Positions 1 to 61,923 of a stretch of DNA of 64,000 nt are shown here, one piece after another. Position 1 is the first letter of the stretch, and each line of letters begins with the position of its first letter. The position numbers and the translations under genes were made by a program. The stretch covers positions 1-64,000 of the forward strand of contig WGBG01000167.1 in NCBI GenBank assembly GCA_015494395.1, in the 5' to 3' direction. This DNA is from Deltaproteobacteria bacterium. Lineage in GTDB: Bacteria > Desulfobacterota > Dissulfuribacteria > Dissulfuribacterales > QOAL01. The notes below the pieces were generated by a model that was not told the origin of the DNA, searched no databases, and worked only from the letters and a program-made list of their open reading frames with translations.

Positions 1-18
1 GATGTGTATAAGAGACAG
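1..18. other. Sequencing-adapter remnant (Tn5/Nextera mosaic end) at contig edge
   Basis: Bases 1-18 GATGTGTATAAGAGACAG equal the 19-nt mosaic end AGATGTGTATAAGAGACAG minus its first A. CRISPR sequence follows immediately. Confidence 0.9.
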
Positions 19-1544: not shown

Positions 1545-1548
1545 GGAA

Positions 1549-3298: not shown

Positions 3299-3391
3299 AA
3301 CTTTTTCCTCATCTATGGTGCTTTTTTATTGGGAAATCACCTTGAATAATTTAATGAGCTGTATTGTCCAAGAAGTACAGACAACAAAATA

Positions 3392-10227: not shown

Positions 10228-10297
10228 GCCAGGGTTGCAACATATAAACATTTAAATTGAGCGATTGTCAGATTTGCTGCATATCCGCGAAATAGGT

Positions 10298-16019: not shown

Positions 16020-16091
16020 GGTTGATTCACCAGAAAATTCCGTATCTATTTAGCATCCTAAATGGTCCTGTTCTGGAGTGACTCCGCCTCA

Positions 16092-23180: not shown

Positions 23181-23938
23181 TCCACTTTCTCCCTTGCTCT
23201 GCGGTTCTGCCGCTCCATGATTATCCCGATGCCAAAGGCCGCCGCTGCCCCGGCAACCAGCCAGGCAAGCTGATCTGCCCCAGGGCCACTGACAACACCA
23301 CCCTTGCTCAACCTGTAAATCCTCTTTGCATCATCAAAATGGGGAACAATGGCAATGGTCAGAAGAAAGTAGAGAGACAGCATTATCATGACAGTGCCGA
23401 GGCGGCGTTCCGCCCCGGCCCCATTGTTGAAAAACGCAAAAAATGCAGCGGATGCCAGCCCCATCACCACGAAAAGCACTGAGAGCAGAGGGAAAAGCAG
23501 GGCTGGTCCGGGCGAAAGTTTATCCAGCAGTGCGCCTGATAAAAAGATCACCGCAAGGCAGCCCGGGCATGGCGCAACCAGCGCCATCCATGCCCTGGTT
23601 TTTCCTGCTCCACTGCCATCCTTACAACGGTTGGGGAAGAGCAGGGCAGCACCCCAGGCAAACAGGATGGCCACCATGATAAAATGGAAGGCCATTATTC
23701 CCCTGAAGATAGAATCCAGGCTTTCAAGCCATGCAAGGGGATTAAACTTCTTAATTCCAAGCCATGCCACTGCAAATACCAGCAGGTAGAGCACAGCCCA
23801 GGCCAACGCCACACCGGCCTTCTGCAGCACGGTTTTTCTGCTGGAGAGCAGGTACGAAAGCCCTGCTCCGCTCTTTGCCGCAAATACTCCAAATGAAAAC
23901 AGCAATCCCAGTATCAGTGTTTTTGTTTCCATGATCAA
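23171..23938 (-). CDS. Polytopic inner-membrane protein (DUF2162-like predicted transporter by recollection)
   Basis: 255 aa with about 7 hydrophobic segments and a PCPGC motif. Overlaps both neighbours (4 nt and 10 nt). Confidence 0.65.
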   Translation of the reverse strand: MIMETKTLILGLLFSFGVFAAKSGAGLSYLLSSRKTVLQKAGVALAWAVLYLLVFAVAWLGIKKFNPLAWLESLDSIFRGIMAFHFIMVAILFAWGAALLFPNRCKDGSGAGKTRAWMALVAPCPGCLAVIFLSGALLDKLSPGPALLFPLLSVLFVVMGLASAAFFAFFNNGAGAERRLGTVMIMLSLYFLLTIAIVPHFDDAKRIYRLSKGGVVSGPGADQLAWLVAGAAAAFGIGIIMERQNRRAREKVEWN

Positions 23939-26040
23939 AACTCGAAACGGTAACTGAGATATGCGGCTATGCCCGGTTTTGGAAAGCCCTTTTTCTCGTA
24001 ATAGTACTTATCAAACAGGTTATCCACCCGGAGCATTACCCGGTGGTGATCCAGGAATGTAGCCCCCATCACCAGGTCGGCCACTGTAAAGCACGGGTAA
24101 CAGATAACCGGGTATCCGACCGCATTCCAGTCATAATCCTTCATGGTGCCCTGGCTTCTGAAATGGAGCCTTGCGTCGAACATTCCATCGTCGTACATGA
24201 GACCGTAGTTCACGGTGTATGTCGCCACATTGTGTATGTCTTCCCAGTTATCCCTGCTGTTCTCCTCCTCGGCACGTATCATCCAGGTGGCATTTGTAAA
24301 AAGGCTTATTGACCGGTTCCAGTCCAGGTACTTCCCAAAGTCCCACTGCAGCTCCCACTCCATGCCATCCATCCTTGCGCTGAGGCTGTTCTCGTAGGTG
24401 GTGACATTTCCGTTTTTCAGCCTGGTTATCTTGTCATCAACCTCGGTGTGGAAATAGGTCATGTCGAAATTCAGGGCCAGAGCCGGATTTTCATACCCGA
24501 GGCCAAAATCAAATGTAAGTGAGGTTTCAGGGTCCAGATCAGGATTTCCCTTTGTGATCATGGTAACTCCGCCTACCACCCTTTCGGAGTAGCCGGCGAG
24601 CTGCGCTGCGGCAGGAGGGACAAAGGCCTGTCCCAGGGTAGTATGCACGCGCAAACCGTTATCGAACAGGTAATTTACGCCTCCCCTTGGGCTGAACTGG
24701 GAGAAATCGTCTGAACCAGGGATGAAATCCGTTTTGTACGGCGTCTTTCTGGTCTCAACATCAAAGGTGTCGTAGCGTCCGCCTGCAGTTACTGTCAGCC
24801 GCTCATCCATGAAGCGCCAGATGGTTTCTACATAGCCCGCCCAGTTTTCCCTGCTCTCATCGGGGGAATAGGGTGCCTTGCGGCTGCCGTCCAGATTATA
24901 GCTCCTGCTTGTCCGGTCAATATCCTGCCAGTCAAAACCCGCTACTATACGGTGTATCCCCCAGTCATACTGGTTCTTCACCTGAACCCCGGTCCAGTAG
25001 ATGTCATAGTCATAACTGCGGTACGGGCTTACCTCCACTGGAGAGGACCAGCCATAGTAGCGCTTGTAATATTCCGATGATTCTCCGGTGTGGTAGGCTG
25101 TGATATCCAGGCGGTAGTCACGGGTAACCTGGCCGCCAAGCCGGAAGTCAACCCCGTAACGGTCAATATCCTTGTATCCGCTCCTGGCATCTCCATCAAA
25201 GGTGTCGCCTGGCGTTTCAATGTCCCTGCCCTGGTAACCATCAACTGTCAGATCCGTGCGCCAGTGGCTTCCTATGTCCATTCCGAGATGGAAGGAACCG
25301 TCACGTGTAATAAAACCCGTGTGTTTCCTCTCTTCACCATTGCCCATCTCGATATCACCGGCCTGTTCGTACCGCCTTGCTGCAATATCAAGGTCCAGAT
25401 TTTTCCATATCCTTCCCCCAATACCTCCTTTCTGAAAGTTGGTGCGGAAAGATCCGAAACCTGCCTCGGCCCTTCCGGCAAGTGTGCCGGTATTCCTGCG
25501 GGTGATCACGTTGATCACGCCCCCCATTGCCTCGCCGCCGTAAAGTGATGAGGCAGGCCCTTTGAGCACTTCAATACGCTCAATATTGTCTGACGTTATG
25601 GTGGCAAGGTTGGTTGCGCCAGCAGGCCTGCCATTAATCAGGATCAGTGAATGTTTGGTGATCCCGGAAAATTCAGGTCTGAAGCCCCTTATTCCGATAC
25701 CTGCCAGGGCACCCGGGTATTCAATTACCCCGATTGATGAATTTTTCTTGAGCTGTTCGGTTATGGTCTCACCTGAGGTAAGCTCAATTTCCTGACGGTC
25801 AATTACCTCAACCTTGGCAGGAATTTCCCGAATTTCCTCAGGGCTCCTGGTGGCAGTGACAACCATCTCTTCCAGTTGCTCTACCTTGGCAGACTCAGAG
25901 GCAGATTCAGAATAGGGCCGACCATCTTCTGACGCAGACGCATGGACAGGATTCAGAATGAACAGTAAGGCAAAAACAGCAAGGCAGGTGCGGCTGCACC
26001 CGCGTTTCAGAAGGGAAAGACTGGATGGGTGATGTGACAT
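23935..26040 (-). CDS. TonB-dependent outer-membrane receptor (BtuB-like, riboswitch-controlled)
   Basis: 701 aa. Signal peptide, plug start EEMVVTATR, GGVINVITR, and the C-terminal barrel motif DNLFDKYYYEKKGFPKPG...YRFEF. AAGGAGG RBS. Confidence 0.9.
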   Translation of the reverse strand: MSHHPSSLSLLKRGCSRTCLAVFALLFILNPVHASASEDGRPYSESASESAKVEQLEEMVVTATRSPEEIREIPAKVEVIDRQEIELTSGETITEQLKKNSSIGVIEYPGALAGIGIRGFRPEFSGITKHSLILINGRPAGATNLATITSDNIERIEVLKGPASSLYGGEAMGGVINVITRRNTGTLAGRAEAGFGSFRTNFQKGGIGGRIWKNLDLDIAARRYEQAGDIEMGNGEERKHTGFITRDGSFHLGMDIGSHWRTDLTVDGYQGRDIETPGDTFDGDARSGYKDIDRYGVDFRLGGQVTRDYRLDITAYHTGESSEYYKRYYGWSSPVEVSPYRSYDYDIYWTGVQVKNQYDWGIHRIVAGFDWQDIDRTSRSYNLDGSRKAPYSPDESRENWAGYVETIWRFMDERLTVTAGGRYDTFDVETRKTPYKTDFIPGSDDFSQFSPRGGVNYLFDNGLRVHTTLGQAFVPPAAAQLAGYSERVVGGVTMITKGNPDLDPETSLTFDFGLGYENPALALNFDMTYFHTEVDDKITRLKNGNVTTYENSLSARMDGMEWELQWDFGKYLDWNRSISLFTNATWMIRAEEENSRDNWEDIHNVATYTVNYGLMYDDGMFDARLHFRSQGTMKDYDWNAVGYPVICYPCFTVADLVMGATFLDHHRVMLRVDNLFDKYYYEKKGFPKPGIAAYLSYRFEF

Positions 26041-26164
26041 TTAGGCATTCCTCCTTAGCTCCTCGTAATGGTTTCCACGGTACGGAGATAAGTGCGCACC
26101 GTCCCTGACAGAGGAAATAAAGTCGGAATACCGGAGCACGTTATCCCGATCCGCGGGGATATGC

Positions 26165-26345
26165 TCTTGCCTTCAGACAGGTCTTCTGACTTCCGGATCG
26201 TCCACAGTGGCTGCCGCCTTCCCACAGTTCACATAAAACTGCAGTGGCGTATTGGCAGCCCGTGTCCCCGGTTACAGCGGCGGGCCCGTCCCGGATTCTC
26301 ACCGGGTTCCCTTTAAGGAGCTGTCCCAAAAACAGGCTGGACAGC
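26165..26345 (-). promoter_or_regulatory. Cobalamin (B12) riboswitch
   Basis: The minus strand reads ...TTAAAGGGAACCCGGTGAGAATCCGGGACGGGCCCGCCGCTGTAACCGGGGAC...CGCCACTGCAG...CTGTGGGAAGGCGG...AAGTCAGAAGACCTGTCTG (B12 box at 26174-26191). These blocks match the conserved Cbl-riboswitch core (compare E. coli btuB AGGGAATCCAGTGCGAATCTGG...GCAGCGGTAAGG...CACTGCC...GGGAAG...GAAGACCTGCC). Confidence 0.88.
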
Positions 26346-26922
26346 CCTTAAGCTCATAATGAGCATCTGAAGACTTTTATATGTGCTGATTGTCGCGTCT
26401 CTTTAACATGCCTCCTTTTGGTTTTCAAGTCTGTTACAGAAATCGGGCATAAATGTTTCAGATACAGAATGTAAAAAGCTGTAATAACAAACTTGTTTTA
26501 ACCAAATTTGATCGATTGTAGGATTTGCTGCATCTCTTCGAAAAATAAATTCCCAATATAATCGTTTGGCTGAGAATTCTTCAAAACCATGGAAAGAGCC
26601 ACGCATATTGCATTGAGATTATTAGAAGCTCAAGAAGAGAAGCTTAAAAAGAAAGACTACAAGTATTGGTTGAGCAATTGTTGGTTTTGCTACTTTTCCT
26701 TTGTCAGTAGGCGCTGCTTGAGTTTGGAAATTTCGTATGAGTGTACGGTAATTTTCCTGCCCTGTATTTCATAATCAGCTCATGCCAATCGGAACAGAAC
26801 TTGATACCGCGCTCCCCTCCTTTTCCGGAATGGTGAGGGGCCCTGGTATCCTGGGATTTACATTGATAACAGGATAGTTGATAAGGCATGGAAAGGTTTT
26901 ATAGTGAGATTCGATTAGTGAC

Positions 26923-28082: not shown

Positions 28083-29900
28083 TTAGCCGCTGGTGTAAAC
28101 CACGGCTATCAGGTAAGCCTTTACACTCCTGCCATTATAATCCACTGTCTCTGTAACATTTTCCCAGTCAACCTTTTCAATGGCCTTGCCCAGTGTGTAG
28201 GAGTGAAGGATATCGTCATCCTGCCTTTGGCCATAACCAGGAATTGGAGAAGTGGTGATGTAGTCGCCGGGTTCAATTGGCCCGTTAACATCCGTAACCA
28301 GGACCCTCCCCTCGCCAAGGGCGTTTACCACTCCAAAGCGTTCACCTTCTTTTGCCTTGTACCAGTGCCCTTCAGGAAGCGGACCCTGGGATACCAGGAC
28401 ACCGAATACCGCCCTGTCCTGTGGGGTCCGGGCAAGTGTCACTGTGGGGAGGGTGGATGAAAGGGATATTTCTCCATTTTCTTTTCTTCTGATCAAGGTC
28501 TTGCCGGTAACAGAAACTATCAGGCCAGGACGGGTATTTTCTGGGAAGTCCCCTGCAAAACGTACCTCGTGGGCACCTGTGAAAGGGCCGTAGTTGGTGC
28601 CCGAACCGTTTGCATAAAAGTCCCAGTTGGCACCTTCACCCCAGATGCCGGTGCTGTTTGCGCGCACGGCCTTGCCGAAAATGCCGATGCTGTTTGTCTC
28701 CTGGGCCTCGGCATACACAGCACGACCGATGGAGTCTGAGGATATAAAATATCCTCCATATTTTGGAGCCAGTCCGGAGACCCCCTTTCCCTGGGAACCT
28801 GTGCTTATGCCATAGGCCCCTACTCCGTTTTGGCCTGCGGCCTCGAACCTTCCTCCATAGTGTACTGAATCTTGTGTGCTTGCAGCTTCCCCGTATACTC
28901 CAGTCCCACTTGAGCCACGGCTTACAAAATATCCGCCATAGATCTGGCCAAAGGCTCCATTGGAACCCTCACCATATACGCCAATGCCCCCAAAGGACGA
29001 GGAGCTAAAATATCCTCCAATATTCCAGGTTGAAAAGATGGATGAGTTGTTGTTAACAGCAGATATGACAGCAGCGTCGGGCCCGAATGTTATGTCGCCG
29101 GCCTGCCCGGTCAGGGAAAGGGGAACAGCCACATTAAGGGTTACCGGGCCGCTGCTCCCCCCTCCGGTAAGCCCAACGCCTGCATTTACTGCGGTAATGT
29201 CTCCCCCTGAATCGTTATCAATGCCGTCAGCAAAGCCGGAAGGAATTGAGCCTATCTCATCCCACGATACCCCATCCTTCAGGCTGTCCGGAACAGTGGG
29301 ATCGGTTTCCGTGGTGATGCCCAGGTCATCCCCGTCTGCGATGTCTGCGGGGATACCCGAGAGGTTACTCCAGGTGATCTCGGAGTCCCTTGCTATCTCC
29401 GGGGCTATGCGCTCTTCGGCAATGGTGCCGGTTGTGATGTCTTCACCGGCATGATGATGGTTAAGAGGGGCAAAATCGTCACTTTCATGGCCATTCAGGG
29501 TCATTGAGTTTTCTGCCTGAAACGCGAAGGCTGTACTTGTCAGTTTTTGCCTGGGGGATAGTGTTTCCCAGGTGGCGCTGTCAGTATTGTAAATTGATAC
29601 CTCGAGAAAGACCTCATCTTCTGAAAATACCGATGCATCCAGGGGCGTGGCGGCCCCCAGCTGGCAACTGTATATGCCGTCTGTAACTGTAACGCCCTGT
29701 TCCTCCTCCCAAAGCAGTGTTCCCCCAATGAGGGAGTTGAAAAGGGAGAAATGTACGGTGAATGTACCGTCCAGCGCCTCGCCTGCGTTGTTGGTGAGCC
29801 TTCCCTGGAAATTTATTGTGCCAGGCGCCCCAAGGGCAGCGTCACAAATGATCAAAGTGCATATTGTCAGTACTAAAAGAAAGAATTTTTTCAATATCAT
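28083..29900 (-). CDS. Secreted tail-fibre-like repeat protein
   Basis: 605 aa with a signal peptide. The N-terminal module INFQGRLTNNAGEALDGTFTVHFSLF...LLWEEEQGVTVTDGIYSCQLG is typical of 'tail fiber domain' proteins. Central iterated GGYF-S...G-GVYGE beta-helix-like repeats. C-terminal domain not recognised. Confidence 0.7.
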   Translation of the reverse strand: MILKKFFLLVLTICTLIICDAALGAPGTINFQGRLTNNAGEALDGTFTVHFSLFNSLIGGTLLWEEEQGVTVTDGIYSCQLGAATPLDASVFSEDEVFLEVSIYNTDSATWETLSPRQKLTSTAFAFQAENSMTLNGHESDDFAPLNHHHAGEDITTGTIAEERIAPEIARDSEITWSNLSGIPADIADGDDLGITTETDPTVPDSLKDGVSWDEIGSIPSGFADGIDNDSGGDITAVNAGVGLTGGGSSGPVTLNVAVPLSLTGQAGDITFGPDAAVISAVNNNSSIFSTWNIGGYFSSSSFGGIGVYGEGSNGAFGQIYGGYFVSRGSSGTGVYGEAASTQDSVHYGGRFEAAGQNGVGAYGISTGSQGKGVSGLAPKYGGYFISSDSIGRAVYAEAQETNSIGIFGKAVRANSTGIWGEGANWDFYANGSGTNYGPFTGAHEVRFAGDFPENTRPGLIVSVTGKTLIRRKENGEISLSSTLPTVTLARTPQDRAVFGVLVSQGPLPEGHWYKAKEGERFGVVNALGEGRVLVTDVNGPIEPGDYITTSPIPGYGQRQDDDILHSYTLGKAIEKVDWENVTETVDYNGRSVKAYLIAVVYTSG

Positions 29901-29958: not shown

Positions 29959-30185
29959 GTAACTGTTCAGCGTATTGATGGTAATTGAGGTTAGTGAATG
30001 GCCTTGTTTTTCCGTTCCGGTGAACAATTTCTTGTTTTTCTAAGGCTCGCTACGCCAAAATCGCGAAACTCGCTCGTACCTTGCTCAGACAGACGCGATT
30101 TTTATGGCTGCGTTTCGCCAAGAAAAACTACGAAAGTCTTCATAGTCACTCCAAAACAAGACCATTTACTACGCTGAATAGATAC
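29959..30185 (+). mobile_element. MITE-like palindromic element, family 1, copy A
   Basis: 227 bp with termini GTAACTGTTCAGCG / CGCTGAATAGATAC. Aligns end to end with 61672-61899. Flanks AGCATAGC / AGATAGC(A) form a near-perfect duplication. Confidence 0.85.
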
Positions 30186-35221: not shown

Positions 35222-35356
35222 GATAAAAGTATCCCCTTTGTCATCGCAATTTCCATATAAGTGACGGGTATGGAAATTTCCCGGTTGTGGATTTGCAGCA
35301 AATCCTGCAATGGTTCAATCCATGTGGGTGTAGGATCACGTATTACTGATAAATTT

Positions 35357-35580
35357 GTAACTATTCAGTGTGATAATTGGTCTTGTTTCGGAGTGACTCT
35401 GAAGAATTTCGTGGTTTTTCTTGGCGAAGCGCAGCCAGAAAATTGCGTCTGTTTGAGTGAGGCATGAGCGAGTTTCGCGATTTTGGCGTAGCGAGCCTTA
35501 GAAAAACAAGAAATTGTTCTCTGGAACGGAAAAACAAGACCAATCATCAACCTTATAACATCAATACACTGAACAGTTAC
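35357..35580 (-). mobile_element. MITE-like palindromic element, family 1, copy B
   Basis: 224 bp, reverse orientation relative to copy A. Perfect 8-bp direct repeat ATAAATTT at 35349-35356 and 35581-35588. Confidence 0.88.
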
Positions 35581-35815
35581 ATAAATTTTAACTAACTTGT
35601 CAAATTGGTAAGGTGAAAAAAACGGAAAGAGAAATTTTTTTCCTGGAAATCTTCTTTATAGATTGATTTTATTTGCTCCAAAAAGTAATTTAAAAGCAAT
35701 TTAATGGTCATGTTTGCGTCTTTTTGAAGAGATCAAGAGGGCATGGTGATTGCTTTTTTAGTTAATATCGAATGGGAATTAAGCTATCTGTTTCTGTAAT
35801 TGATTAACCGGCATG

Positions 35816-35993
35816 GTATCGATTCAGCATGAGTGAGTGGTCTTGTTTTGGAGTGACTCTGAAGAATTTCGTGGTTTTTCTTGGCGAAGCGCAGCCAAAA
35901 ACGCCTCTCTCTTAGCAAGGCACCAGCGAGTTTCGCGGTTTTGGCGAAGTAATCCTCAGAAAAACAAGAAAATATTCACTGCTGAACAGTTAC
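35816..35993 (-). mobile_element. MITE-like palindromic element, family 1, copy C (internally deleted)
   Basis: 178 bp in the same orientation as copy B. Lacks about 45 bp near one end. Ends 40 bp before the ATG at 36033. Confidence 0.8.
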
Positions 35994-36032: not shown

Positions 36033-39000
36033 ATGAAGGAGGAGAGGAAGTTGCTGCTTGTTAAAGCAGTATTTTGTATTGCATTGGTTGTTATTGCAGC
36101 CATTCTACCAATATCCAATAATGGTGCTTCACGTGCTGAAGACCATCAAACAATTACTGCAAAGGGTCTGACCGGGCCGTGCCTCGGTGATCTTGATTTA
36201 GACCAGGACGTTGACGGCAGGGACCTTCAGCTCTTTCAGGATTACATACTGAATTTCCAAGCCCTTGCTGATATAAACAGCAGCGGGGCGTATGACCAGG
36301 AAGACGTTCAAGAGTTTGCCTTGGAGTTTGGAAGAACCGATTGTCCCGTCCTTGTCTTTGGCATAACTCCTGTTGCTATTCCATCTTCAGGCGCTGTGCC
36401 CCTTGAGGTAAGGTTTTCAGCAAATGTAGCAGGTGGCACACCTCCATACACTTTTTCATGGGACATCGATGGAGACGGGACCGCGGACGAGTCCCGTGAG
36501 ACCTTTTCTTATCTTTTCCTTGAGCCCGGGACATACAATATCCACGTTACCGCTTCTGACAGCGCGGATGGTAATGCCTCCGGCGACCTCACTGTCATAG
36601 CAATGCTCCCTCCTGAGGTCAGGGCATGGGCCTCTCCGCTTCGTGGCGCCTCTCCCCCCATGAATGTCTCCTTCTCCTGTTCCGCATCGGATCCCGACGG
36701 CGAAATCTCACTCTATGAATGGGATTTTGATGGAGACGGTGTGTTTGACTGGAGCAGTCACGAGACCTGCGAAGTGTCCCGTTCCTACAATACAAAGGGC
36801 GCCTTTGATGCAACAGTGAGGGTGACTGATGACCAGGGCCTATGGGTTACGGACACGGTTCACCTGTTCGTTGGCTCAAGGCCTTCCGTTTTTGCCTCGG
36901 CTGCCCCTATGTCCGGTTCAGCCCCCCTCAGGGTTGTTTTTTCAGCCAGGGCATCAGATGAGGATGGCGCTGTTACGCTCTATGAATGGGATTTTGATGG
37001 AGACGGTGTGTTTGACTGGAGCAGTAACCAGTCTGCTGATACTACCTATACTTTTGAGCAGGGTGGGGTGTTCAATGTCACGCTCCGGGTCACTGATGAT
37101 GACGGTATCACCTCGGAGGATACTGTTATAATATCCATTGCAGGGCCCCCTGTTCCCCTTCCATCTGCCTATCCCATTTCCGGTTCTGCCCCGTTACCAG
37201 TGACCTTTTTTGCAGATGGGGAGGATTATGACGGCAGCCCGAATACATTCCAGTGGGATTTTAATGGAGATGGTGTATTTGACTGGAGCAGTACAGATAC
37301 CTCCATTGCCACTTATACCTATGACCAGCCCGGAACATATTCTCCGGTGTTAAGGGTTACGGATAACCAGGGGGTTTTTGCCGACAAGGCCCTGGAGATA
37401 ACCGTTAATGCCCCAGGCCCGGAATCAGTGCTTACAGCCGTTCCTTTTGTCAGTCCTCCAAATGGCGCTGTTCCCCTGAGTGTGCATCTTATTGGCGGAG
37501 TAAACGCCCCTGATGGCCCGGTGTGTGAATATCAGTGGGACTTTCAGGGTGATGGCGTCTATGACTGGAGTGAAAATGTAAAATCTGCCGCCTCGCCTGG
37601 GCAGCCGACAATCAGAACAAGGGCTGCGGCAAGCCCGGTTTTTGCCGATCTTGACGGCGATGGTGATTATGACATGGTCCTGGGCGGGGATGATGGCAAG
37701 CTGAATCTTTATGAAAACCAGGGAACCAGATATGTCCCTGCTTTCCGCACAGCAGGCCAGGTGCGTGACTCTGAAGGCGACATAATAGATGTAGGCTTTC
37801 ACAGCCGACCAGCCTTTGGGGATATTGACGGTGATGGAGACCTTGATCTTGTCATTGGCAGTGAGGAGGGAACATTTATCCTCTACGAAAACAGGGGAGA
37901 TTCTGCACACGCATCCTGGGTGCTCTCCGGTCAGTTGATGAACTGCGTGAACGAACCGGTGGTAACAGATTATTACAGCTTCTCTGAGCTTGCTGATATT
38001 GATGCGGACGGTGACCTGGACCTTGTTTCAGGGGATTACTTTGGACAGGTGATCATCTTCCAAAACAGGGGGGATGCACATTCACCAAGATGGGCGTCTG
38101 GGGAGCCGGCTGTTGATGTCTGGGGCGATGTTATTGATGCCGGCTACTACAGTGCCCCAAGGCTTGTGGATATTGATGGAGATGGTGACCTGGACCTGCT
38201 CCTTGGTTGTGACAGTGGCAACATACGGCTTTACCTCAACCAGGGTGATTCCCACACGCCGGTCTGGGAGGAACAGGGTGAGCTTTCAGACATCCATGGT
38301 CAAACCATTGATGTTGGATATTACAGCAGGCCATTTTTTGTTGATATAGATGCAGACCGTGATCTTGACCTTTTTGGAGGCACAGGAGATGGTGGCATTG
38401 TTTACTTTGCCAACACAGGCAGCATGAGCCATGCGGTGTGGAGGCTTCTTTCCCTTCACTACAATGCAATAGGCACGGATTACAACTCTGCACCTTTTGC
38501 TGTTGATTTTGACCATGATGGTGATCTGGACCTCGTTACAGGGGATGAGGACGGCACCGTCTATTACTTTACCAATGAGGGAAACTCCACCGCTCCCGTC
38601 TGGGCGCCCCAGGGACGGATCATTGATGTTCAAGGGGATACTTTAAGTGTTGGTGGCAGAAGCCGTCCGGTGCTTGCAGACATTGATGGTGATGGTGATT
38701 ATGACCTCTTCGTTGGGTCTTCGTCAGGTGAGATCTTTTGGTCCAGAAATCTAGCAACAGGAGATGATGCGGCATGGCATGAGCCGGAACTGATGCATGA
38801 CAGTGCAAACAGTACGATTAATCCCGGTGCAAACAGCAAGCCCTTCCTGGCAGATATTGACTCTGACAATGACCTGGACCTCATTATCGGGACCCAGCAG
38901 GGCGCTGTCCTGCTTTACAGGAATGACGGGTCAGCCGCAGAACCATCGTTTGTAAATGCAGGAAGTATCTTGGACATCGACGGTCACGAGATAAACGTGG

Positions 39001-40595
39001 GCTCAGGCAGCAGCCCTTCCCTTTATGATATTGATTTTGATGGTGACCTTGATCTTTTCATCGGTGCAGATTCCGGCAAAATATTCCTGTTCAGAAATTC
39101 TGGAAGCCCGGAGGCTTACCTTTTTCAGCAGGAAGGCCAGTTCAGGGATTCTGCAGGCCAGCCTGTTTCTGTCAGTGGCAATGCTGTGCCAGCTATGGCA
39201 GACATGGACGGGGATGGTGATGGTGACCTGGTCACAGGGGACAGTTTTGGAAATATCACCCTGTTTGAAACGACCGGTACCATAACCCATGTGTACCTTC
39301 AGCCAGGTACATATCATCCCACCCTCAAGGTCAGGGAGTGTGGTGGCCGCACGGATTCTGATTCCATAACCGTTGAGGCAGGTCCTGATGGCGCGCCTTC
39401 TGCCATGTGTTCAGCAGAGCCTGAAAGCGGAACAGGCCCGCTTGATGTCAGTTTTACAGCCACTGCAACTGATACAGATGGAAACGTAACCCTGTTTGAA
39501 TGGGATTTTGATGGTGATGGCATCTATGACTGGAGCAGCAGTGAAACCGGTGACGTCATCCATACCTACAACAGGGTAGGGGTGTTTGAACCTGTCCTTC
39601 GTGTAACTGATAATGAAGGAAATTCCATTAAACAGGCGTTGAGCATAAGGGTAGAGCCAAGTATCACTGCCTCTGCAAGTGGTGCGGTGAACATTGCCCA
39701 CGGAGTTGCCGGGACCATTACCAGCAATCTTGGGGCCGGAGCCGTAGTGACCCTCCGCATAGTTGACCAGGCAGGAAATACAGTACGTACCATACTCCAT
39801 GACGTAGAGAGGGAGGCAGGGCAGTTTACAGATTCCTGGGACGGGCTTGATGACCAGGGCGCCCCTGTGCGTGACGGTGTGTATTTCTTCATACTTGAAG
39901 TCAATATAGATGGAAAGACCTGGACGTATGATAGGAGAATGGGTGCACCTTATCCTCGGGTAGTACCGAACAGGTCGTTTCCGTCAAGCTTCGCCCAGTA
40001 CGATGATCAATTTTTCCCAATAAGTTACAGCCTGTCACGTCCATCAGCAGTAAGCCTTTACATCAGGACAAACGGCACCAATGGGAATGCATTTGACCGG
40101 GTAAAGACCCTGCTCTCATGGGAGTACAGGTCAGCAGGCAGTCACGTGGAGATCTGGGATGGTACGGATGACAGAGGGGTTGCCGTGCCAGGCACCCTCC
40201 CTACTGGTGTTACCCTATGGGCATGGGAGCTTCCTGAAAGTGCCCTGGTGGTTACAGGGTCATCCCCCGAGATTACAGACCTGGGCGCTGATCCAAATTA
40301 CTTTAGCCCAGCGTATAATCCCTACGCAAGTGATCCAAACGACCATACTGCTGTATCCTTCACCATATCTGAGCCGTGTGATGTCCATGTCCATGTGAAG
40401 GATTCAGAGGGGCTTGTCATAAGACAGTTCACCCTTTCTTCCCTCCCTGAAGGCAGGGCAAATGTTGTGTGGGATGGCAGGAATGACGCAGGAAGCCTTG
40501 TCCCTGCAGGGCAGTACACCATTGGGATCACGGCAATAGACAGGGATGGAAATCGTTCGCCTACAAGGTACGCATCCGTAGTTCTGTTTTATTGA
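36033..40595 (+). CDS. Giant secreted protein: N-terminal dockerin-like module, PKD domains, about 12 FG-GAP/VCBS repeats, C-terminal FlgD-Ig-like domains
   Basis: 1520 aa with a signal/anchor sequence. DLDLDQDVDGRDLQLFQDYI...DINSSGAYDQEDVQEFALEFG. PKD signature (Y/F)EWDFDGDG(V/I)(F/Y)DWSS three times, plus divergent variants (FSWDIDGDGTADES, FQWDFNGDGVFDWSS, YQWDFQGDGVYDWSE). Iterated (A/G)D(L/I)DGDGD(Y/L)D(L/M)(V/L). C-terminal WDGxDDxGxxVxxGxY motifs. Confidence 0.85.
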   Translation: MKEERKLLLVKAVFCIALVVIAAILPISNNGASRAEDHQTITAKGLTGPCLGDLDLDQDVDGRDLQLFQDYILNFQALADINSSGAYDQEDVQEFALEFGRTDCPVLVFGITPVAIPSSGAVPLEVRFSANVAGGTPPYTFSWDIDGDGTADESRETFSYLFLEPGTYNIHVTASDSADGNASGDLTVIAMLPPEVRAWASPLRGASPPMNVSFSCSASDPDGEISLYEWDFDGDGVFDWSSHETCEVSRSYNTKGAFDATVRVTDDQGLWVTDTVHLFVGSRPSVFASAAPMSGSAPLRVVFSARASDEDGAVTLYEWDFDGDGVFDWSSNQSADTTYTFEQGGVFNVTLRVTDDDGITSEDTVIISIAGPPVPLPSAYPISGSAPLPVTFFADGEDYDGSPNTFQWDFNGDGVFDWSSTDTSIATYTYDQPGTYSPVLRVTDNQGVFADKALEITVNAPGPESVLTAVPFVSPPNGAVPLSVHLIGGVNAPDGPVCEYQWDFQGDGVYDWSENVKSAASPGQPTIRTRAAASPVFADLDGDGDYDMVLGGDDGKLNLYENQGTRYVPAFRTAGQVRDSEGDIIDVGFHSRPAFGDIDGDGDLDLVIGSEEGTFILYENRGDSAHASWVLSGQLMNCVNEPVVTDYYSFSELADIDADGDLDLVSGDYFGQVIIFQNRGDAHSPRWASGEPAVDVWGDVIDAGYYSAPRLVDIDGDGDLDLLLGCDSGNIRLYLNQGDSHTPVWEEQGELSDIHGQTIDVGYYSRPFFVDIDADRDLDLFGGTGDGGIVYFANTGSMSHAVWRLLSLHYNAIGTDYNSAPFAVDFDHDGDLDLVTGDEDGTVYYFTNEGNSTAPVWAPQGRIIDVQGDTLSVGGRSRPVLADIDGDGDYDLFVGSSSGEIFWSRNLATGDDAAWHEPELMHDSANSTINPGANSKPFLADIDSDNDLDLIIGTQQGAVLLYRNDGSAAEPSFVNAGSILDIDGHEINVGSGSSPSLYDIDFDGDLDLFIGADSGKIFLFRNSGSPEAYLFQQEGQFRDSAGQPVSVSGNAVPAMADMDGDGDGDLVTGDSFGNITLFETTGTITHVYLQPGTYHPTLKVRECGGRTDSDSITVEAGPDGAPSAMCSAEPESGTGPLDVSFTATATDTDGNVTLFEWDFDGDGIYDWSSSETGDVIHTYNRVGVFEPVLRVTDNEGNSIKQALSIRVEPSITASASGAVNIAHGVAGTITSNLGAGAVVTLRIVDQAGNTVRTILHDVEREAGQFTDSWDGLDDQGAPVRDGVYFFILEVNIDGKTWTYDRRMGAPYPRVVPNRSFPSSFAQYDDQFFPISYSLSRPSAVSLYIRTNGTNGNAFDRVKTLLSWEYRSAGSHVEIWDGTDDRGVAVPGTLPTGVTLWAWELPESALVVTGSSPEITDLGADPNYFSPAYNPYASDPNDHTAVSFTISEPCDVHVHVKDSEGLVIRQFTLSSLPEGRANVVWDGRNDAGSLVPAGQYTIGITAIDRDGNRSPTRYASVVLFY

Positions 40596-40650
40596 TGAAG
40601 GTATAAGTTTGAGAAATCAGGCTGTTTTATTGAGTAGCAGGAGGCATTAA

Positions 40651-43600
40651 GTGTCACGTTTTCCTTACAGACAGCAAGTTTCATTGATTGTTCTTGTAAC
40701 TTTCTGTTTCAGTATATTTACCACCGGTTTTGTTTTGCCGCACAGTGCAAGTGCTTATGATGTTTCAGGTGATCATGGCTCCACGACACCTAAGGGAAAT
40801 GATCCAAATAATCCTAATCCTGCCAATAAACCTGGACAAACTGGTGCTGCAGAGCCAGTTAATATAGCTAATGGTAATTTTTATTACGAACACAGGGATA
40901 CGTATATTGCTGGACGCATGCCGCTTGAAGTTACCAGAAAATACAATTCTCAGGATATGCGTGAGGGGCCTTTTGGGTATGGCTGGACATTTAATTATGA
41001 CTTTTTCCTCATGCCTTATTCGCATCAGGAGAGTGGGACAATTGCCACGGCTGAGGGATGGAAACTCTTTGGGCTGCAGCCAGGAGTCCGGCTGGATTTT
41101 AAGATATCCCCGGATCTACAAACTGTTATTCCACCCAAGGGCTACCATATAAGTTTGCAACCGTCATCAGATGGAGCAACTGTCAGGAAGAAAGACGGAA
41201 AGACCTACAGGTTTGACAATTCGGGCAGGCTGACGACAATTTCAGACAGGAACGGTAACAAGCTCTTATTTACTTATGACAATGCCGGGCGTCTCATCAC
41301 TGTTTCTGATGAATACGGTAGGCGCCTTAATTTCGAATATGGTGTCAATAACAAGATAACATCCATAACGGATCCAGCGGGCCGTGTATTCCGCTACCAT
41401 TACGATTCTAATAATAATCTTGTTACATATACTAATCCAGCCGGCTATAGCACCAGGTATTCATATGACCACCAGCACAGGCTGATCAGTATTACTAATG
41501 CCAAGGGTGTAACTTATCTGTCAAATACTTACGATTCCAAGAATAGGGTAACAGAACAGGTCTATAATGGTAACTCTTTCATATTTGAATATCACCCGGA
41601 TCAGAAATATACAAAAATGAGAGACCGAAGGGGTTTTTGGACAACTTATTACTACAATGATAATGGTAATGTTGAAAAAAAGATCGATCCATTAGGCAAT
41701 ACCACTCTTACTTCATGGGATGAAAATATCAATCCTGTCAGTGCTACGGATGCTAAGGGAAACGTCACCCAAAATGAATACGACAAAAATGGGAACCTGG
41801 TTTCTGTGACAGATCCTCTTGGCAATATAACCAGATTTACCTACGACTTACAGTATAACCATATAAAGACCATTACTGATGCTTTAGGTAATGTTACTAC
41901 CTATGATTATGATGAAATGGGAAATCTTGTTAAGATTACCGACGCATCAGGTAATATTACCACTTTTACCTATAATGAGAAGGGGGATTTACTTACCATA
42001 ACGGATACTCTTGGCAATACCACCTCCTTTTTATACGATGAATATGGAAGGTTGGTTTCAAAGACAGACCCGCTTGGTTATTCTGCTGCCTTTGAATACG
42101 ATGCTGTTGGCAACATAACATACTTTACAGACCAGGCCGGTCACGTAACACTCTTCTCTTATGATGTATCAGGCCATCAAACATCAGTTACCAATGCATT
42201 GGGAAATATTACAAGCTATGCCTATGACGAAAATGGAAACAGGATAGCATTAACTGACGCAGCTGGTCATGTAACAGAATTTCATTATGATGACTACAAT
42301 CAACTGGTTAAGAGAACAGACGCGCTTGGTAATAATGCAACCTTCACATACGATGAAAATGAAAACAGGATATCTGAAACTGATCCCCTAGGTAATGTAA
42401 CTACCTACCAATACGATGCCTTAGACAGGATAGTCCAGGTAACCGATGCCAGGGGGGTATCCACTCACTTTGAATATGATGAAAATGGTAATCTGATTAG
42501 CATAACAGACGGGAATGGCAATCAAACATCTTACCAATATGATGCCCTTAACAGAAAGATAAAGATAACTTATGCAAACGGTTCGACTGAAATATTTCGT
42601 TATGATGCTGTAGGAAATATCACGGAGAAAATTAATAGAAGGGCAGACAAGATTCGGTATCAATATGATTCCGTGCATCATCTAATCAAAAAAACATATC
42701 CTGATTCTACTGAGGTCACATTTTCCTATGATGCCCTTGGCAGATTAACCTCATTATCACAGCCTGGATGGAATATTTCATATACTTACGATGCCACAGG
42801 ACATGTAATTGATGAAAACCAGAATGGAAATGTTGTTTCCTATGAGTACGATGCCGTTGGTAACAGGATAAAGCTCATTTATCCTGACAATTCCTGGTTG
42901 ACCTATGCCTATGATGAACTTAACAGGCCGAACCAAATCAAGAATCAGACCGACATCGTGGTTGTGAGTTATGCCTATGATAGTCTGGGGAGAAGGACAG
43001 GGGTCGATTATCCCAATGGAACAGGTACGACCTACAGTTATGACGCTCTTAACAGGGTTACCTCTGTCAACAACAGCATCGTAAGCCCTGCATCTCTCAT
43101 ATCACGTTATACATACGGCTATAATTCGGCAGGCAACAGGAAATATGTTGTTTATGGTCATCGTGATAATCATGGTGATGTCTATACTTATGATTCCATT
43201 TATCAGTTGACAAATGTCAAGTATGACGTTGCTGACCCTGGTGCCGAATCACAGAGCCCCGGTTCGTCGAGTTTTGAGAGGCAAGTAACCTACAATTTTG
43301 ATAATGTATGGAATCGGACTTTCGTTACCCATGCAGACAATTCTACTGTTACCTACAGCTCAAATTCAGTGAACCAGTACACTGCTATTGATGGTTCAGT
43401 TCTTTCTTATGATTCCAGCGGAAACCTAGTTAGCGATGGCATTAATACCTATAAGTACGATTCTGAAAACAAGCTTATTCATGTCATCACCCCTGATAAT
43501 GACATAACCTACAAGTATGATCCTCTTGGAAGACGTGTTGAAAAGGATATCTCTGGCCATGTAGTCAGGTTTATTTATGACGGTCCCAGAGTAATCATGG

Positions 43601-44445
43601 AAACTGATCAGTCCGGTGAAGTGCAAGCCAAATATGTCTATGGAGCCGGTATTGATGAGGTAATTTCCATGACACGTACTTATCATGATTACTATTATCA
43701 TTTTGACGGCCTGGGCAGTGTCTCAGATATCACTGATGCAAATGGGACCACGGTCGAGTCGTACCAGTATGATGTTTACGGCAGGGCAACTATTCTTGAT
43801 GCGTATGGTCATCAGATAGTCGAAAGTTCTGTTGGCAATCCATATATGTTTACTGGCAGGAGGTACGATGCTGAAAGTGGCCTTTATAATTATCGTGCCC
43901 GTTATTATGATTCTGGATTTGGAAGATTCTTGCAGACAGATCCGATTGGGTATGTCGGGGGGCTTAATCTTTATACCTATGTTAAGAATAATCCGGTTAA
44001 TTGGGTGGATCCGTATGGATTGTGGACGATCCAAATCGGTGTTAGCGGTAGTGGAGGTGCTGGTGCTGGAGGGACTGCTGGTGGTGGTATAGTTTTTGGT
44101 TTTAGTTGGGAAAACGGTTTTCAGTTTGGAACCTATGAAGTCATTGGAGGAGGGGGGTATGGTGGAGTTGCTGCCTCTGGAACAATTGATATAACATTTT
44201 CAACTAATACTGACATTAATGATTTATCGGGAGGGGCGGGTACTGTTGGAGGCTCCGGAGGAGAAGGACTTTCCTTTGGTGGTGAGGTTAATATTCCGGA
44301 AGGTGACGCTGCTCCGTCATGGACTATTAGCGGTGGAATAGGCGCAGGCACTCCTATTGAGGAGCACGGTTTTTATACTTACACCTGGATTCAAGAGTGG
44401 ACTAACAAAAATAAAACAAAATCATGCAGCAACACTTCGAAATGA
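40651..44445 (+). CDS. Rhs/YD-repeat polymorphic toxin with Sec-type signal peptide and glycine-rich C-terminal domain
   Basis: 1264 aa. GTG start 6 nt after AGGAGG. N-terminus LIVLVTFCFSIFTTGFVLPHSASA. Dozens of YD repeats (YxYDxxGNL). Core-end motif YRARYYDSGFGRFLQTDPIGYVGGLNLYTYVKNNPVNWVDPYGL. The 140 aa from 44023 are 30% Gly. Confidence 0.92.
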   Translation: MSRFPYRQQVSLIVLVTFCFSIFTTGFVLPHSASAYDVSGDHGSTTPKGNDPNNPNPANKPGQTGAAEPVNIANGNFYYEHRDTYIAGRMPLEVTRKYNSQDMREGPFGYGWTFNYDFFLMPYSHQESGTIATAEGWKLFGLQPGVRLDFKISPDLQTVIPPKGYHISLQPSSDGATVRKKDGKTYRFDNSGRLTTISDRNGNKLLFTYDNAGRLITVSDEYGRRLNFEYGVNNKITSITDPAGRVFRYHYDSNNNLVTYTNPAGYSTRYSYDHQHRLISITNAKGVTYLSNTYDSKNRVTEQVYNGNSFIFEYHPDQKYTKMRDRRGFWTTYYYNDNGNVEKKIDPLGNTTLTSWDENINPVSATDAKGNVTQNEYDKNGNLVSVTDPLGNITRFTYDLQYNHIKTITDALGNVTTYDYDEMGNLVKITDASGNITTFTYNEKGDLLTITDTLGNTTSFLYDEYGRLVSKTDPLGYSAAFEYDAVGNITYFTDQAGHVTLFSYDVSGHQTSVTNALGNITSYAYDENGNRIALTDAAGHVTEFHYDDYNQLVKRTDALGNNATFTYDENENRISETDPLGNVTTYQYDALDRIVQVTDARGVSTHFEYDENGNLISITDGNGNQTSYQYDALNRKIKITYANGSTEIFRYDAVGNITEKINRRADKIRYQYDSVHHLIKKTYPDSTEVTFSYDALGRLTSLSQPGWNISYTYDATGHVIDENQNGNVVSYEYDAVGNRIKLIYPDNSWLTYAYDELNRPNQIKNQTDIVVVSYAYDSLGRRTGVDYPNGTGTTYSYDALNRVTSVNNSIVSPASLISRYTYGYNSAGNRKYVVYGHRDNHGDVYTYDSIYQLTNVKYDVADPGAESQSPGSSSFERQVTYNFDNVWNRTFVTHADNSTVTYSSNSVNQYTAIDGSVLSYDSSGNLVSDGINTYKYDSENKLIHVITPDNDITYKYDPLGRRVEKDISGHVVRFIYDGPRVIMETDQSGEVQAKYVYGAGIDEVISMTRTYHDYYYHFDGLGSVSDITDANGTTVESYQYDVYGRATILDAYGHQIVESSVGNPYMFTGRRYDAESGLYNYRARYYDSGFGRFLQTDPIGYVGGLNLYTYVKNNPVNWVDPYGLWTIQIGVSGSGGAGAGGTAGGGIVFGFSWENGFQFGTYEVIGGGGYGGVAASGTIDITFSTNTDINDLSGGAGTVGGSGGEGLSFGGEVNIPEGDAAPSWTISGGIGAGTPIEEHGFYTYTWIQEWTNKNKTKSCSNTSK

Positions 44446-44774
44446 TAATTAGTGTAATTGTACTTATTGTATCTTTATTTGTTGTCCTGGTAGGTATAGT
44501 TACTTTTGTTTATAATCTTAAGCTATATTTTTATCTCAAGAAAACTAACATAGAAAGATGGGAGGAGTTAACAACGATTGATAAATTTGGTCCAGGATTA
44601 TCGAATCCTTCTCGTTGGATTCCTTATTTATATAATGATGTTGATGAAAATGATCGCCAGATTCTTTTTTATAAAAAGACAATTCGTTTTTTGCTTTTCT
44701 GTTTTTTGGCAGGATTGTTATTTATTTTTATAATTCCGATTATACTATTTATGGTTACGAAATTAATTTTATAA
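44442..44774 (+). CDS. Candidate Rhs immunity protein (small membrane protein)
   Basis: The ATG at 44442 forms an ATGA overlap with the Rhs stop (alternative ATG at 44424). Two strongly hydrophobic segments (IISVIVLIVSLFVVLVGIVTFVY; FLLFCFLAGLLFIFIIPIILFMV). Very AT-rich. Confidence 0.6.
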   Translation: MIISVIVLIVSLFVVLVGIVTFVYNLKLYFYLKKTNIERWEELTTIDKFGPGLSNPSRWIPYLYNDVDENDRQILFYKKTIRFLLFCFLAGLLFIFIIPIILFMVTKLIL

Positions 44775-44885
44775 TCATTAATAAGTTGTATCTGCTATTT
44801 TTAGTAATTTATGGCTGGCTGCTAAATTTAGATAAATTGTTAATGATATAGAATAGCACAGATTAAGTAATATTAGAAAAATAAT

Positions 44886-45290
44886 ATGAAAGCTATGAAA
44901 TATATATTTATGTCTTGTGTTTTTCTTATGTCTTTTTTTGTTCAAATTTCTTCTGGTGATCAGTCGATAGTAAATAATTCTGGTAATATTACAATTAATG
45001 TCCATAATGGCTATGTTACCATTGGATATTTTCCCCCAGTTACTGAAATAGAATTAATAGAACGTTTAGCGCTTGATGCTGATTTCGGCCAAACCATCGT
45101 AGGGATTCCCCAGCTTTACGACGACGGAACCCATGGTGATAAAGTAGCTGATGACGGCACGTACTCCATAGAGATCAATATTCCGAAAGGGGCTAAACAG
45201 ATAAAGTTGCTGTTTTATGTACTCGATACTGATGGTAACGAAGTAGAAATTGGACCCGTGGTTAGAGAAATACCTTCTACTACTGAATAG
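44886..45290 (+). CDS. Small secreted protein of unknown function
   Basis: 134 aa. Signal peptide MKYIFMSCVFLMSFFVQISSG. DDGTHGDKVADDGTYS motif. Lies in the AT-rich islet. Confidence 0.55.
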   Translation: MKAMKYIFMSCVFLMSFFVQISSGDQSIVNNSGNITINVHNGYVTIGYFPPVTEIELIERLALDADFGQTIVGIPQLYDDGTHGDKVADDGTYSIEINIPKGAKQIKLLFYVLDTDGNEVEIGPVVREIPSTTE

Positions 45291-45459
45291 AGTATATCTA
45301 TATCTGCAGTAATAATTATCAAGAATAGATAATGAATATAAGTAACATATACTGAGATTTACATAAGATTAAGATGTATATCTTATGCAAATATATAATA
45401 GTTCCGTAAATAGATAACTTGTGCTTTTCTTTTGATTTTAAGAAGTTAGGAGAGGAGAG

Positions 45460-48400
45460 ATGAGAAGGGCTGTTTTATATTCTACTGTTTGTATTCTTGT
45501 TTCATTCATTTTGCCTTTAATGGTTAATGCCGCACCGTTTCCATTTGCAGACGACATGGAAGGCGGTGATTCCAACTGGGTGACAGACACCCCCTGGGCT
45601 GTTTCTGACACTGCGTCACACAGTGGTACCAGTGCGTTATGTGATAGCCCGGATGGATATTACCAAAATAATGCGGATGTTTCGGTTACCCTGAGTTCTC
45701 CTGTGGACCTCAGTGCCAGTGAAAACCCCATGCTCAAATTTTGGCACAGGTACCAGTTTGAAAATGACTATGACTTTGGCTACATGGAGGTCTCTGCGGA
45801 TAATGGCACTTCATGGACTACTGTTGCCACGTTTACAGGTACTTCCGGCGGAGGGACCCAGCCCGAATGGGTAATGGAGACCCTTCATCTCGATGCGTTC
45901 AAGAGTGAAACTGTATTAATCCGCTTCCGCCTCGTTTCGGACAAGACCGAAACCATGGACGGATGGTGCATTGATGATGTTGCCATTGCTGAGCAACCCC
46001 ATTCAGTAAGCCTTTCTGTTGACAATCCGTCTTCAACCTCCCTGGATTTAACATGGACCCGGAATCTTGATGATGCCACTACATTTGGGGCTTATAAAAT
46101 TTATCGCAGTGAAACCCCTCAGGTAGATTTTAACAGCACACTTGTGGCCAAGATAACAGATCAGGCAACCACCACGTTTACGGATACCACCCTGAAGCCG
46201 GAGCATACATATTTTTACAAGATTTATGTGGTAAATGCCTTTGAAATGTATCAGGCCAGCAAGGTTGCGTCTGGCACAACTGACACGGCTGATTATGAAC
46301 ATGGATATAAATGGGATTTTGAGAATGGTGCGTCCGGCTGGACATTCAGCGGAGACTGGTCTGTAACAGACGAAGATTCACATGGAGACTCAGGGAGCTG
46401 CATTACAGACAGTCCTTCAGGTGAGAGCTACAATAACAGCATTGATTATTCAGCCATTGTTACAGTTGATCTTGGGGCCTTTGTACGTCCACTCTTGTCA
46501 TTCTGGAATCGTTACAGTCTTGAGTCCTATCATGATTATGGCTGGGTGGAGGTATCCAGCGATGGTGGCAGTCACTGGAAAAGGCTCTTTTTCGTTACCG
46601 GTGCATCCTATGGTAGATGGCTCAAGGAGGAGATAGACCTTTCTGAATACGCCGGGTTTGAAATCTTGATCAGGTTCAGAATAACCTCTGATAATAATGG
46701 TGTTACCAACGATGGCTGGTATATAGATGATGTTGAGATAAGTGAGAATAACGCGGTAACTGCATATCCATTTTTTGATAACTTTGAGGAAGAAACTTCA
46801 AACTGGATATTTTCTTCATGGGGTCGGATAGCTAATGGTGGCAATACAGGACTGTGGTCAGTCACCGATAGTCCTTCTGGTTCCATTGGTTCGAGGGTAT
46901 ATTCTTCCATGACCCTTCGGGGGACTTTCGACCTTTTGGCTGCCTCAAATCCTAAGTTGAGTTTTTGGTACAAGTTTGACGCATATTCATCTGATTATTT
47001 GGGTGTGTATGTATCTATAAATTGGGGTCATACCTGGAATAAAATCTGGGAACGTGGTGGTGATACGAACAATTGGACCAATGTTACCTTGGACCTCTCT
47101 CCATATCGTTCGGCGCATGTACTTATCAGGTTTCAAGTTGATGATAGAGGAAATGGGAATGGTAACGGTGCATGGATAGATGATATTCTCATTGATGATG
47201 CGCCTTTGGACGTTTTGTTAAATGAACCTGACCACATAACGGAACACAGCATTACCCTGAGCTGGACAGAATCGCCTGATTCGGATTTTGAGGAGTACAG
47301 GCTTTACAGGAGTACCAGCACAGGAATAACAGGCAATCGCCCAGAGGATGTCTTAGTTGCTGAAATTGACTCTCTGAATCAAACGTCATTTACTGACAAC
47401 CTGGACTATCCTGATAGGACCTACTATTACCGGGTTTTCATAGGGGATATCCAGGGGTTAGTCAGTGCTGGCAGTAATGAAATCAGTGCAGCAACCCTGA
47501 GTGGTACAGAATTGGAAAGCTTTCCGTTTTCAGATGACATGGAAAGTGGAGACAGGTGGGGCAATGTGCTTCCCTGGGCTTTGACCGACGAAGATGCCCA
47601 CAGTGGCACTCATTCGTTTACTGACAGTCCTTACGGGAATTATGAAAATAATATAGACAAATCCATTGTTGCTCATATTGACCTTGGCAATTCAGTACGT
47701 CCTCTCTTGTCATTCTGGCATCGTTACAGCTTTGAATCTTACCATGATTTTGGCTGGCTGGAGGTATCTCGTGATGGTGGTAGTAATTGGAAAAGGGTCT
47801 TTTTTGTTACTGGTGCATCATATGCTGAATGGTTTAAGGACGAGGTAGATCTTTCCGAATATGCCGGCTCTGATATTTTGATCAGGTTCAGAATAACCTC
47901 TGATAATAATGGTGTTACCAACGATGGCTGGTACATAGATGACGTAGAAATAGTCGAAAATACAGAGGTGGCTCCGTATCCGTTTTTTGATGGATTTGAA
48001 GGAGATGGATCAAACTGGATTCTTTCTTCCTGGAAGTCTTATTCCTCAGATTCTTACCAGGGTATCTGGTCGGTTACCGACAGTCCTGTGGGGGTTATGG
48101 GGAGCTGGGTAAATTCAGCCATGACTCTCAGGGGATTGATCGATTTGATAGATGTGTCAAATCCCAAGTTGAGTTTCTGGTACAAGTTTGATGCAAACTC
48201 TGGGGATTATTTATGCGTGTATATCTCAACTAATAGAGGCAACACATGGACAAGAATATGGCAGTTTGGTAACACTTCTGATCGTACTGATTGGACCAAT
48301 GTCCAGTTGGATCTTTCGCCATACCGTTCCTCACGTGTAAGTATTAAGTTCCAGGTAGAGGATCGGGGTGGTGGAAATGGCGGGGGAGCATGGATAGACA

Positions 48401-51258: not shown

Positions 51259-51286
51259 GGGATAAGCTCAAAGCTCAAGGCTCAAA

Positions 51287-51495
51287 GTAACAACATGATC
51301 GTCTGTTTACCTTTGGGCCTTGGGTTAACCTTCATTGTTTTTCCCCATTGGTTGCCCAATTGGGGAAACATAATTCCCTTTGCGTCTTTAGCGTTTTGCG
51401 GTCCATGTCTAAAACCGCCTGCTTCGCCGATAAAAACAACGAAATTATTCAAAGTCACTCCAAAACAAGACCATTTACCGCGCTGAATAGATATC
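51287..51495 (+). mobile_element. MITE-like element, family 1, copy D (5' half diverged)
   Basis: 51419-51495 aligns clearly with the 3' third of copies A and E (...GTCACTCCAAAACAAGACCATTTACCGCGCTGAATAGATATC). The 5' boundary is uncertain. Ends 10 bp before the ATG at 51506. Confidence 0.65.
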
Positions 51496-58560: not shown

Positions 58561-58625
58561 ACTGGGTTATATTTGGCTTCAGCAAATATTGCACGGTTCA
58601 AGGCAGGTGTTACATTGTAGCGGTC

Positions 58626-61899: not shown

Positions 61900-61923
61900 C
61901 AATTTGTACCTATTCCCCATGGT

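Follow-up and report, generated by a model that had tools for sequence, protein, structure and literature searches.

RESULTS

Genomic context and copies of the repeat in the window

The window, i.e., the whole 64,000-nt stretch that was analyzed (positions 1 to 64,000), starts with GATGTGTATAAGAGACAG, which corresponds to the Nextera/Tn5 mosaic-end adapter, so that the end of the contig retains a remnant of the library adapter. It is followed by a type I-E CRISPR-Cas locus with the genes cas1, cas5, cas7 (CT1975), cas6e, cse2, cse1, and cas3. In the accompanying array, truncated where the contig ends, a 29-nt repeat (GAAACACCCCCACGGGCGTGGGGAAGAAT) alternates with six 32-nt spacers, none of which matches either of the two MITE families described below or any locus examined. 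Further along the window lie a cobalamin riboswitch upstream of a gene for a TonB-dependent receptor, a gene for a secreted 605-aa protein, and a cluster of giant secreted-protein genes (Table 1). The products of this cluster include a 1520-aa PKD/FG-GAP/FlgD-Ig protein, a 1264-aa RHS-repeat protein, and a 1932-aa MAM/fn3 protein, the last of which is built from three tandem units of ~1.2 kb that are 77 to 82% identical.

Dispersed among these genes of an uncultured bacterium of the sulfate-reducer type are pieces of an element of ~225 bp, noted at positions 29959 to 30185 and referred to here as family-1, with copies labelled A to E. Three of the copies in the window are full length (A, B, and E), one is internally deleted (C), and two further pieces are right-end fragments; all of them are intergenic. 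An 18-mer from the best-conserved part of the element occurs six times in the window, against a chance expectation of 0.07. The initial annotation had listed five copies, of which A, B, C, and E were recovered where it had placed them, including the deletion in copy C, previously put at ~45 bp. Copy D, the 5' half of which was described there as diverged, is only a fragment: the stretch from 51287 to 51420 is unrelated DNA, and the 137 nt to the left of the fragment align to the family consensus with a score of 52, compared to 46 +/- 8 for shuffled sequence. A sixth piece, the right-end remnant on the minus strand, had been overlooked.

Copy A sits upstream of the gene for the secreted 605-aa protein, 59 bp from its start, copy C ends 40 bp upstream of the gene for the 1520-aa PKD/FG-GAP protein, and copy E occupies the interval from the ftsY stop to a batD-like start. 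Copies B, C, and D flank the giant gene cluster. Three 605-aa open reading frames (ORFs) adjoin copies but encode unrelated proteins, a coincidence of length. The 8-bp target-site duplications claimed for the copies are perfect for B and E; the flanks of copy A (AGCATAGC / AGATAGCA) form an imperfect duplication that agrees only when a 1-nt deletion is allowed, and those of copy C match at 5/8 positions.

A 27-nt repeat rich in GCTCAAAG units is found in the window and at four further loci (L017:1077-1103, L045:2482-2508, L008:2941-2966, and L054:2358-2382). It directly adjoins a family-1 end in the window and in L017 and could represent either a further small repeat, the third here, or a sequence context preferred for insertion.

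Table 1 Features of the 64,000-nt window and their positions
Feature	Position	Strand	Description
Adapter remnant	1-18		GATGTGTATAAGAGACAG
Type I-E CRISPR-Cas locus	23-388 and 669-8647	-	
Second MITE, fragment	near 10253-10296		
Family-1, right-end remnant	16042-16083	-	42 bp, 86% identical; between two genes
TonB-dependent receptor gene	23935-26040	-	
Cobalamin riboswitch	26159-26365	-	95 bits
Second MITE, fragment	near 26500-26564		
Gene for secreted 605-aa protein	28083-29900	-	
Family-1, copy A	29959-30185	+	Full length, 227 bp; 94% identity to family consensus
Second MITE, fragment	near 35231-35320		
Duplication flanking copy B	35349-35356 and 35581-35588		ATAAATTT, perfect
Family-1, copy B	35357-35580	-	Full length, 224 bp; GATAATTGG/CCAATTATC subterminal-block subfamily
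Family-1, copy C	35816-35993	-	Both termini kept; ~47 bp gone just inside left terminus
Giant secreted-protein gene cluster	36033-51258		
Tandem units of MAM/fn3 protein	46466, 47678, 48896		
27-nt repeat	51264-51290		Rich in GCTCAAAG units
Family-1, fragment D	51421-51495	+	Right end only, ~73 bp; 93% identity to consensus positions 152-224
Second MITE, fragment	near 58529-58573		
Duplication flanking copy E	61664-61671 and 61900-61907		CAATTTGT, perfect
Family-1, copy E	61672-61899	+	Full length, 228 bp; perfect 8-bp duplication
Second MITE	63616-63823		Also at L060:2950-3158

Family-1 beyond the window and its target sites

A scan of a genome collection with a 20-mer of the element yielded at least 58 further loci in three MAGs. 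Among the loci listed, nearly all belong to "Deltaproteobacteria bacterium M17_metabat1_scaf2bin.112" (JALWJV01), another Desulfobacterota MAG, and a few come from WFRQ01 and JALVQQ01. When copy A was compared by BLAST to the loci listed, at least 40 additional full-length copies and many partial ones were retrieved. The resulting consensus measures 225 bp, and full copies share a mean pairwise identity of 88.7%. No match to family-1 was found in viral contigs, in the plasmid collection (blastn with the consensus), or in JGI metagenome contigs, a collection from which the host clade is absent and which was scanned twice, with a plain anchor pattern and with the anchor plus "not-MITE" filter positions chosen so as to favour a parent element.

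Target duplications were counted over the 42 full copies for which both flanks could be read (40 in the listed loci and three in the window, with one lost at a contig edge). Perfect 8-bp duplications flank 26 of these copies, and five more have duplications that match at seven of eight positions. Every duplication sequence is different, showing that the 8-mers are target rather than element and excluding the possibility, raised in the initial annotation, that they belong to the repeat itself. The duplicated targets are AT-rich (71% AT, compared to 52% in the background), and T-A is preferred at the positions immediately flanking the duplication.

The FtsY sequence was used to find a sister lineage with 97 to 98% protein identity and ~94 to 95% nucleotide identity. 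Two family-1 sites are empty there (loci L076 and L070). At the site of copy E, which is present in identical context in three independent assemblies of the window's species, the sister lineage carries the target once, as ACACAATTG, compared to the duplicated ACAAATTG of the window. Similarly, a copy just beyond the window (L060:895-1117), flanked by a duplication of GTTTAATA, is missing from the sister lineage, in which GTTTAATA is found exactly once. These two exact empty sites, which the initial annotation had proposed to look for, together with the differing 8-bp duplications, support its reading of the repeats as products of transposition. Family-1 is small and non-coding, has terminal inverted repeats and fixed-length duplications that differ from copy to copy, exists in many dispersed copies, and is absent from corresponding sites in a relative, features that support its status as a bacterial MITE.

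In a more distant relative (FtsY identity of 82%), the ftsY-batD spacer spans 656 bp (L072:11003-11658) and harbors two decayed family-1-like copies that are 72 to 76% identical. At least one of these is oriented opposite to copy E, pointing to independent, older insertions in the same spacer. Taken together, the decayed copies in the distant relative and the empty sites in the sister lineage indicate that the family is old in the clade and was recently active.

Apparent solo ends in the listed loci are mostly internally deleted miniature versions that have kept the left terminus; locus L047 has a right end only. One such miniature, in L021, is 98 bp long and is flanked by the duplication AATCAGGC. 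At the other extreme, a 437-bp composite, consisting of family-1 with a nested second MITE, resides at two loci, L012 and L040, with different 8-bp duplications (GAAAATAA and GATCTTTC), and hence the composite itself has transposed. As both the deleted miniatures and the composite carry duplications of their own, mobility depends on the ends only.

The nested element represents another MITE family, unrelated to family-1 and 208 bp long, whose termini read CCTAGATTGAGCG...CGCTCAATCTAGG and which generates 5-bp duplications (TTTCA, AGTAA, TACGA, AAGAA, and others). At least 12 full copies are present in the loci listed, some of them nested inside family-1 copies, and its insertions are polymorphic between the sister lineages in both directions.

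Terminal repeats and the probable transposase

Family-1 is bounded by 14-bp terminal inverted repeats, GTAACTGTTCAGCG and GTATCTATTCAGCG, which match each other at 12/14 positions and are conserved in at least 90% of the 42 copies. On the left arm only, the terminal repeat is followed by an 18-nt spacer, after which both arms carry a perfect 19-bp subterminal repeat (TGGTAAATGGTCTTGTTTT); deeper inside the element, the arms resemble each other more loosely.

On the strength of its GTAA ends and 8-bp duplications, the element had been compared to the IS66 family. Classic, three-ORF IS66 elements, e.g., those of the ISPsk01 type, have a terminal repeat starting GTAAGCGTCCGG... (PMC12888890), which family-1 matches at only 8/12 positions. 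Agreement is closer with the single-ORF ISBst12 group. ISDge4, which belongs to this group, has GTGACTACTCAGCA / GTAACTGCTCAGCA as its terminal repeats and is accompanied by a direct repeat of 8 bp (PMC12898284); its ends match those of family-1 at 12/14 positions. Another member was read from the Geobacillus kaustophilus plasmid pHTA426. This element spans 1635 bp, with ends GTAACTATTCAGCCC / GTATCTATTCAGCCC and an 8-bp duplication (AACTCGTC), and encodes a 485-aa protein with the domains PF03050, PF13005, and PF20042. Compared over its terminal repeats, GTAACTATTCAGC / GTATCTATTCAGC, it matches the right terminus of family-1 (GTATCTATTCAGC) at 13/13 positions and the left one (GTAACTGTTCAGC) at 12/13, or at 13/13 in A-variant copies (GTAACTATTCAGC). 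Moreover, the two elements share the asymmetry of GTAAC on the left and GTATC on the right. Five more copies on plasmids (Bacillus, Clostridium, Nostoc, Leptolyngbya, and ISAva2) gave the consensus GTAACTRYTCAG, and 8-bp flanks were found in four of the five (three perfect, one 7/8). Six elements of the ISBst12 group, drawn from four phyla, contain the motif GTAACTRYTCAG. How far the terminal repeat lies from a conserved motif of the transposase differs among group members, as does the transposase motif itself. The proposed kinship to IS66 is thus supported by the termini and narrowed to the ISBst12 group.

The similarity between family-1 and the pHTA426 element stops at the terminal repeat, so the latter is not the parent. 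A tblastn search of ~390 kb of loci from MITE-rich genomes with the Geobacillus transposase as query revealed no IS66-family transposase, and an all-against-all blastn of the same ~390 kb returned no repeat longer than the composite MITE, at 445 bp. ORFs adjoining apparent solo ends were inspected as candidate parent transposases and proved to be housekeeping genes. Neither the element nor the host loci examined contain an ORF for a PF03050 transposase, which is why we regard family-1, with its ISBst12-type terminal repeat and 8-bp target duplication, as a derivative of the group and not as a member.

The most likely explanation, which we hold with a probability of roughly 80%, is that family-1 is a non-autonomous, non-coding MITE and that an ISBst12-group transposase (IS66 family) mobilizes it in trans. 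Because the host loci examined lack a transposase gene, we infer this partner in these genomes; similarity of terminal repeats alone does not prove which enzyme acts. In the proposed scheme, a single-ORF DDE transposase would recognize the GTAACTRTTCAGC termini, with the subterminal block as a candidate binding site, and would cut AT-rich targets with an 8-bp stagger. Repair of the staggered cut would then generate the 8-bp duplications, and amplification would probably proceed by copy-and-paste.

Alternatively, the element could be moved by a transposase of another family that makes 8-bp duplications, e.g., ISL3, IS1595, IS256, or IS6, its ISBst12-like ends being convergent. The failure to find a cognate transposase in any locus examined would fit this view, as would the short length, 13 to 14 bp, that family-1 and ISBst12-group elements have in common. 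Convergence would, however, have to reproduce near-complete identity to the pHTA426 element at both ends along with its left-right asymmetry, as well as a motif that recurs across four phyla in elements for which 8-bp duplications are typical. To our knowledge, the ends of the other families with 8-bp duplications begin with GG, unlike those of family-1. We therefore consider movement by another transposase family unlikely.

Hairpin structure, coding capacity, and internal signals

Each half of the element is an inverted copy of the other, so that a single strand can fold into a hairpin of ~100 bp, as had been predicted from the paired blocks. Both strands of copy A fold into a single long hairpin (-69.4 and -72.1 kcal/mol, with z scores of -4.1 and -4.5, respectively). 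Hardly any stem position varies among the 42 copies, and changes on both arms together are confined to four pairs in a 6-bp subterminal block. They amount to 23 double-change cells, compared to 5.2 in shuffles, and none of 500 shuffles reached 23. The block exists as three haplotypes (GGTAAATGG/CCATTTACC, GATAATTGG/CCAATTATC, and AGTGAATGG/CCATTCACT), all of which are found both in the window and in JALWJV01. Paired changes of this kind, stemming from few independent events, are equally expected for a symmetric protein-binding site and for base pairing, and we do not read them as evidence for a functional RNA.

The element has no consistent ORF, in agreement with the initial annotation. The start codon of the only ORF in the consensus (~60 aa) is missing from 12/42 copies, another 14 have a stop after 9 aa, and poly-T length variants that shift the frame are common among the copies. 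The 59-aa ORF of copy A has no record as a called gene. Promoter and terminator scans identified no promoter-like or terminator-like sites inside the copies, and a search against Rfam gave nothing at gathering score, the best match being to an unrelated model (E = 0.33).

These data bear on whether the fold has a role of its own. That the hairpin itself is under selection, its full length and the paired changes of the subterminal block being more than a by-product of how the element arose, appears quite improbable to us. It could act as a single-stranded DNA hairpin in ISBst12-type transposition, the mechanism of which is poorly known, or as a host RNA hairpin that punctuates operons, of which copy E, between ftsY and batD, might be an example. 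Another reading, in which the repeats are primarily functional structured RNA or DNA hairpins (a regulator, a terminator or processing site, or a REP-like element) retained and spread through the use that the host makes of the fold, with transposition incidental or past, strikes us as very improbable. It draws on the long stable fold on both strands, the co-changing subterminal pairs, and the intergenic position of all copies, none of the 42 being spanned by a long ORF. However, the covariation is limited to the one 6-bp block and its three inherited haplotypes, while the remainder of the stem barely varies, and neither internal signals nor an Rfam family support a regulatory role. In addition, insertions are polymorphic between close relatives, and miniatures without most of the stem still have duplications. 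The results refute the notion that the repeat arose by chance or through errors of assembly or binning: although the MAGs are fragmented and of low coverage, with many copies at contig ends and an adapter remnant at the start of the window, the context of copy E agrees between independent assemblies, divergence between copies is ~11%, each copy has flanks and duplications of its own, and the 18-mer is far more frequent than chance would allow.

DISCUSSION

With this analysis, an uncultured clade of Desulfobacterota gains two unrelated MITE families, of which family-1 is well defined and recently active. Such repeats break up MAG assemblies and stay unannotated; the consensus can be used to mask or flag them, and the insertion polymorphisms can serve as strain markers. 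Through its ends, family-1 connects a MITE with the IS66 family, specifically its ISBst12 group, with the conserved 13-bp terminus and the 19-bp subterminal repeat as a candidate transposase recognition site. It does not change how MITEs are understood.

Among known systems, the ISBst12 group (ISBst12, ISDge4, and the pHTA426 element) is closest to family-1. The likeness consists of a terminal repeat following GTAACTRYTCAGC, the GTAAC/GTATC asymmetry, and the 8-bp duplications. In contrast to members of the group, which are 1.5 to 1.7 kb long, family-1 measures 225 bp and lacks a transposase gene. Its arms mirror each other as inverted copies for ~100 bp, whereas the ends of the Geobacillus element have only ~20 bp in common. 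Classic three-ORF IS66 elements also have ends beginning with GTAA and produce 8-bp duplications, as in family-1, which lacks their tnpA, tnpB, and tnpC genes.

REP/BIME sequences and the PATEs derived from IS200/IS605 are palindromic, intergenic, and abundant, like family-1. As far as we know, they have neither terminal inverted repeats nor target duplications. Family-1 has both and is therefore not assigned to the REP/RAYT or IS200/IS605 systems.

Bacterial MITEs, including Chunjie of Geobacter uraniireducens (178 to 235 bp) and Correia of Neisseria, were reviewed in 2024 (PMC10969869), with no mention of a MITE related to IS66 or ISBst12. MITEs of the Chunjie and Correia type are likewise small, non-coding, intergenic, and present in multiple copies, with terminal repeats, duplications, and size variants that arise by internal deletion; the insertion of Chunjie between operon genes also resembles what is seen for family-1. 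They differ from it in sequence and host clade, and Chunjie is likened here by description only. Family-1 thus belongs to a kind of element that is already thoroughly known, and it is apparently a new MITE family and the first in the searched literature to be tied to the ISBst12 group.
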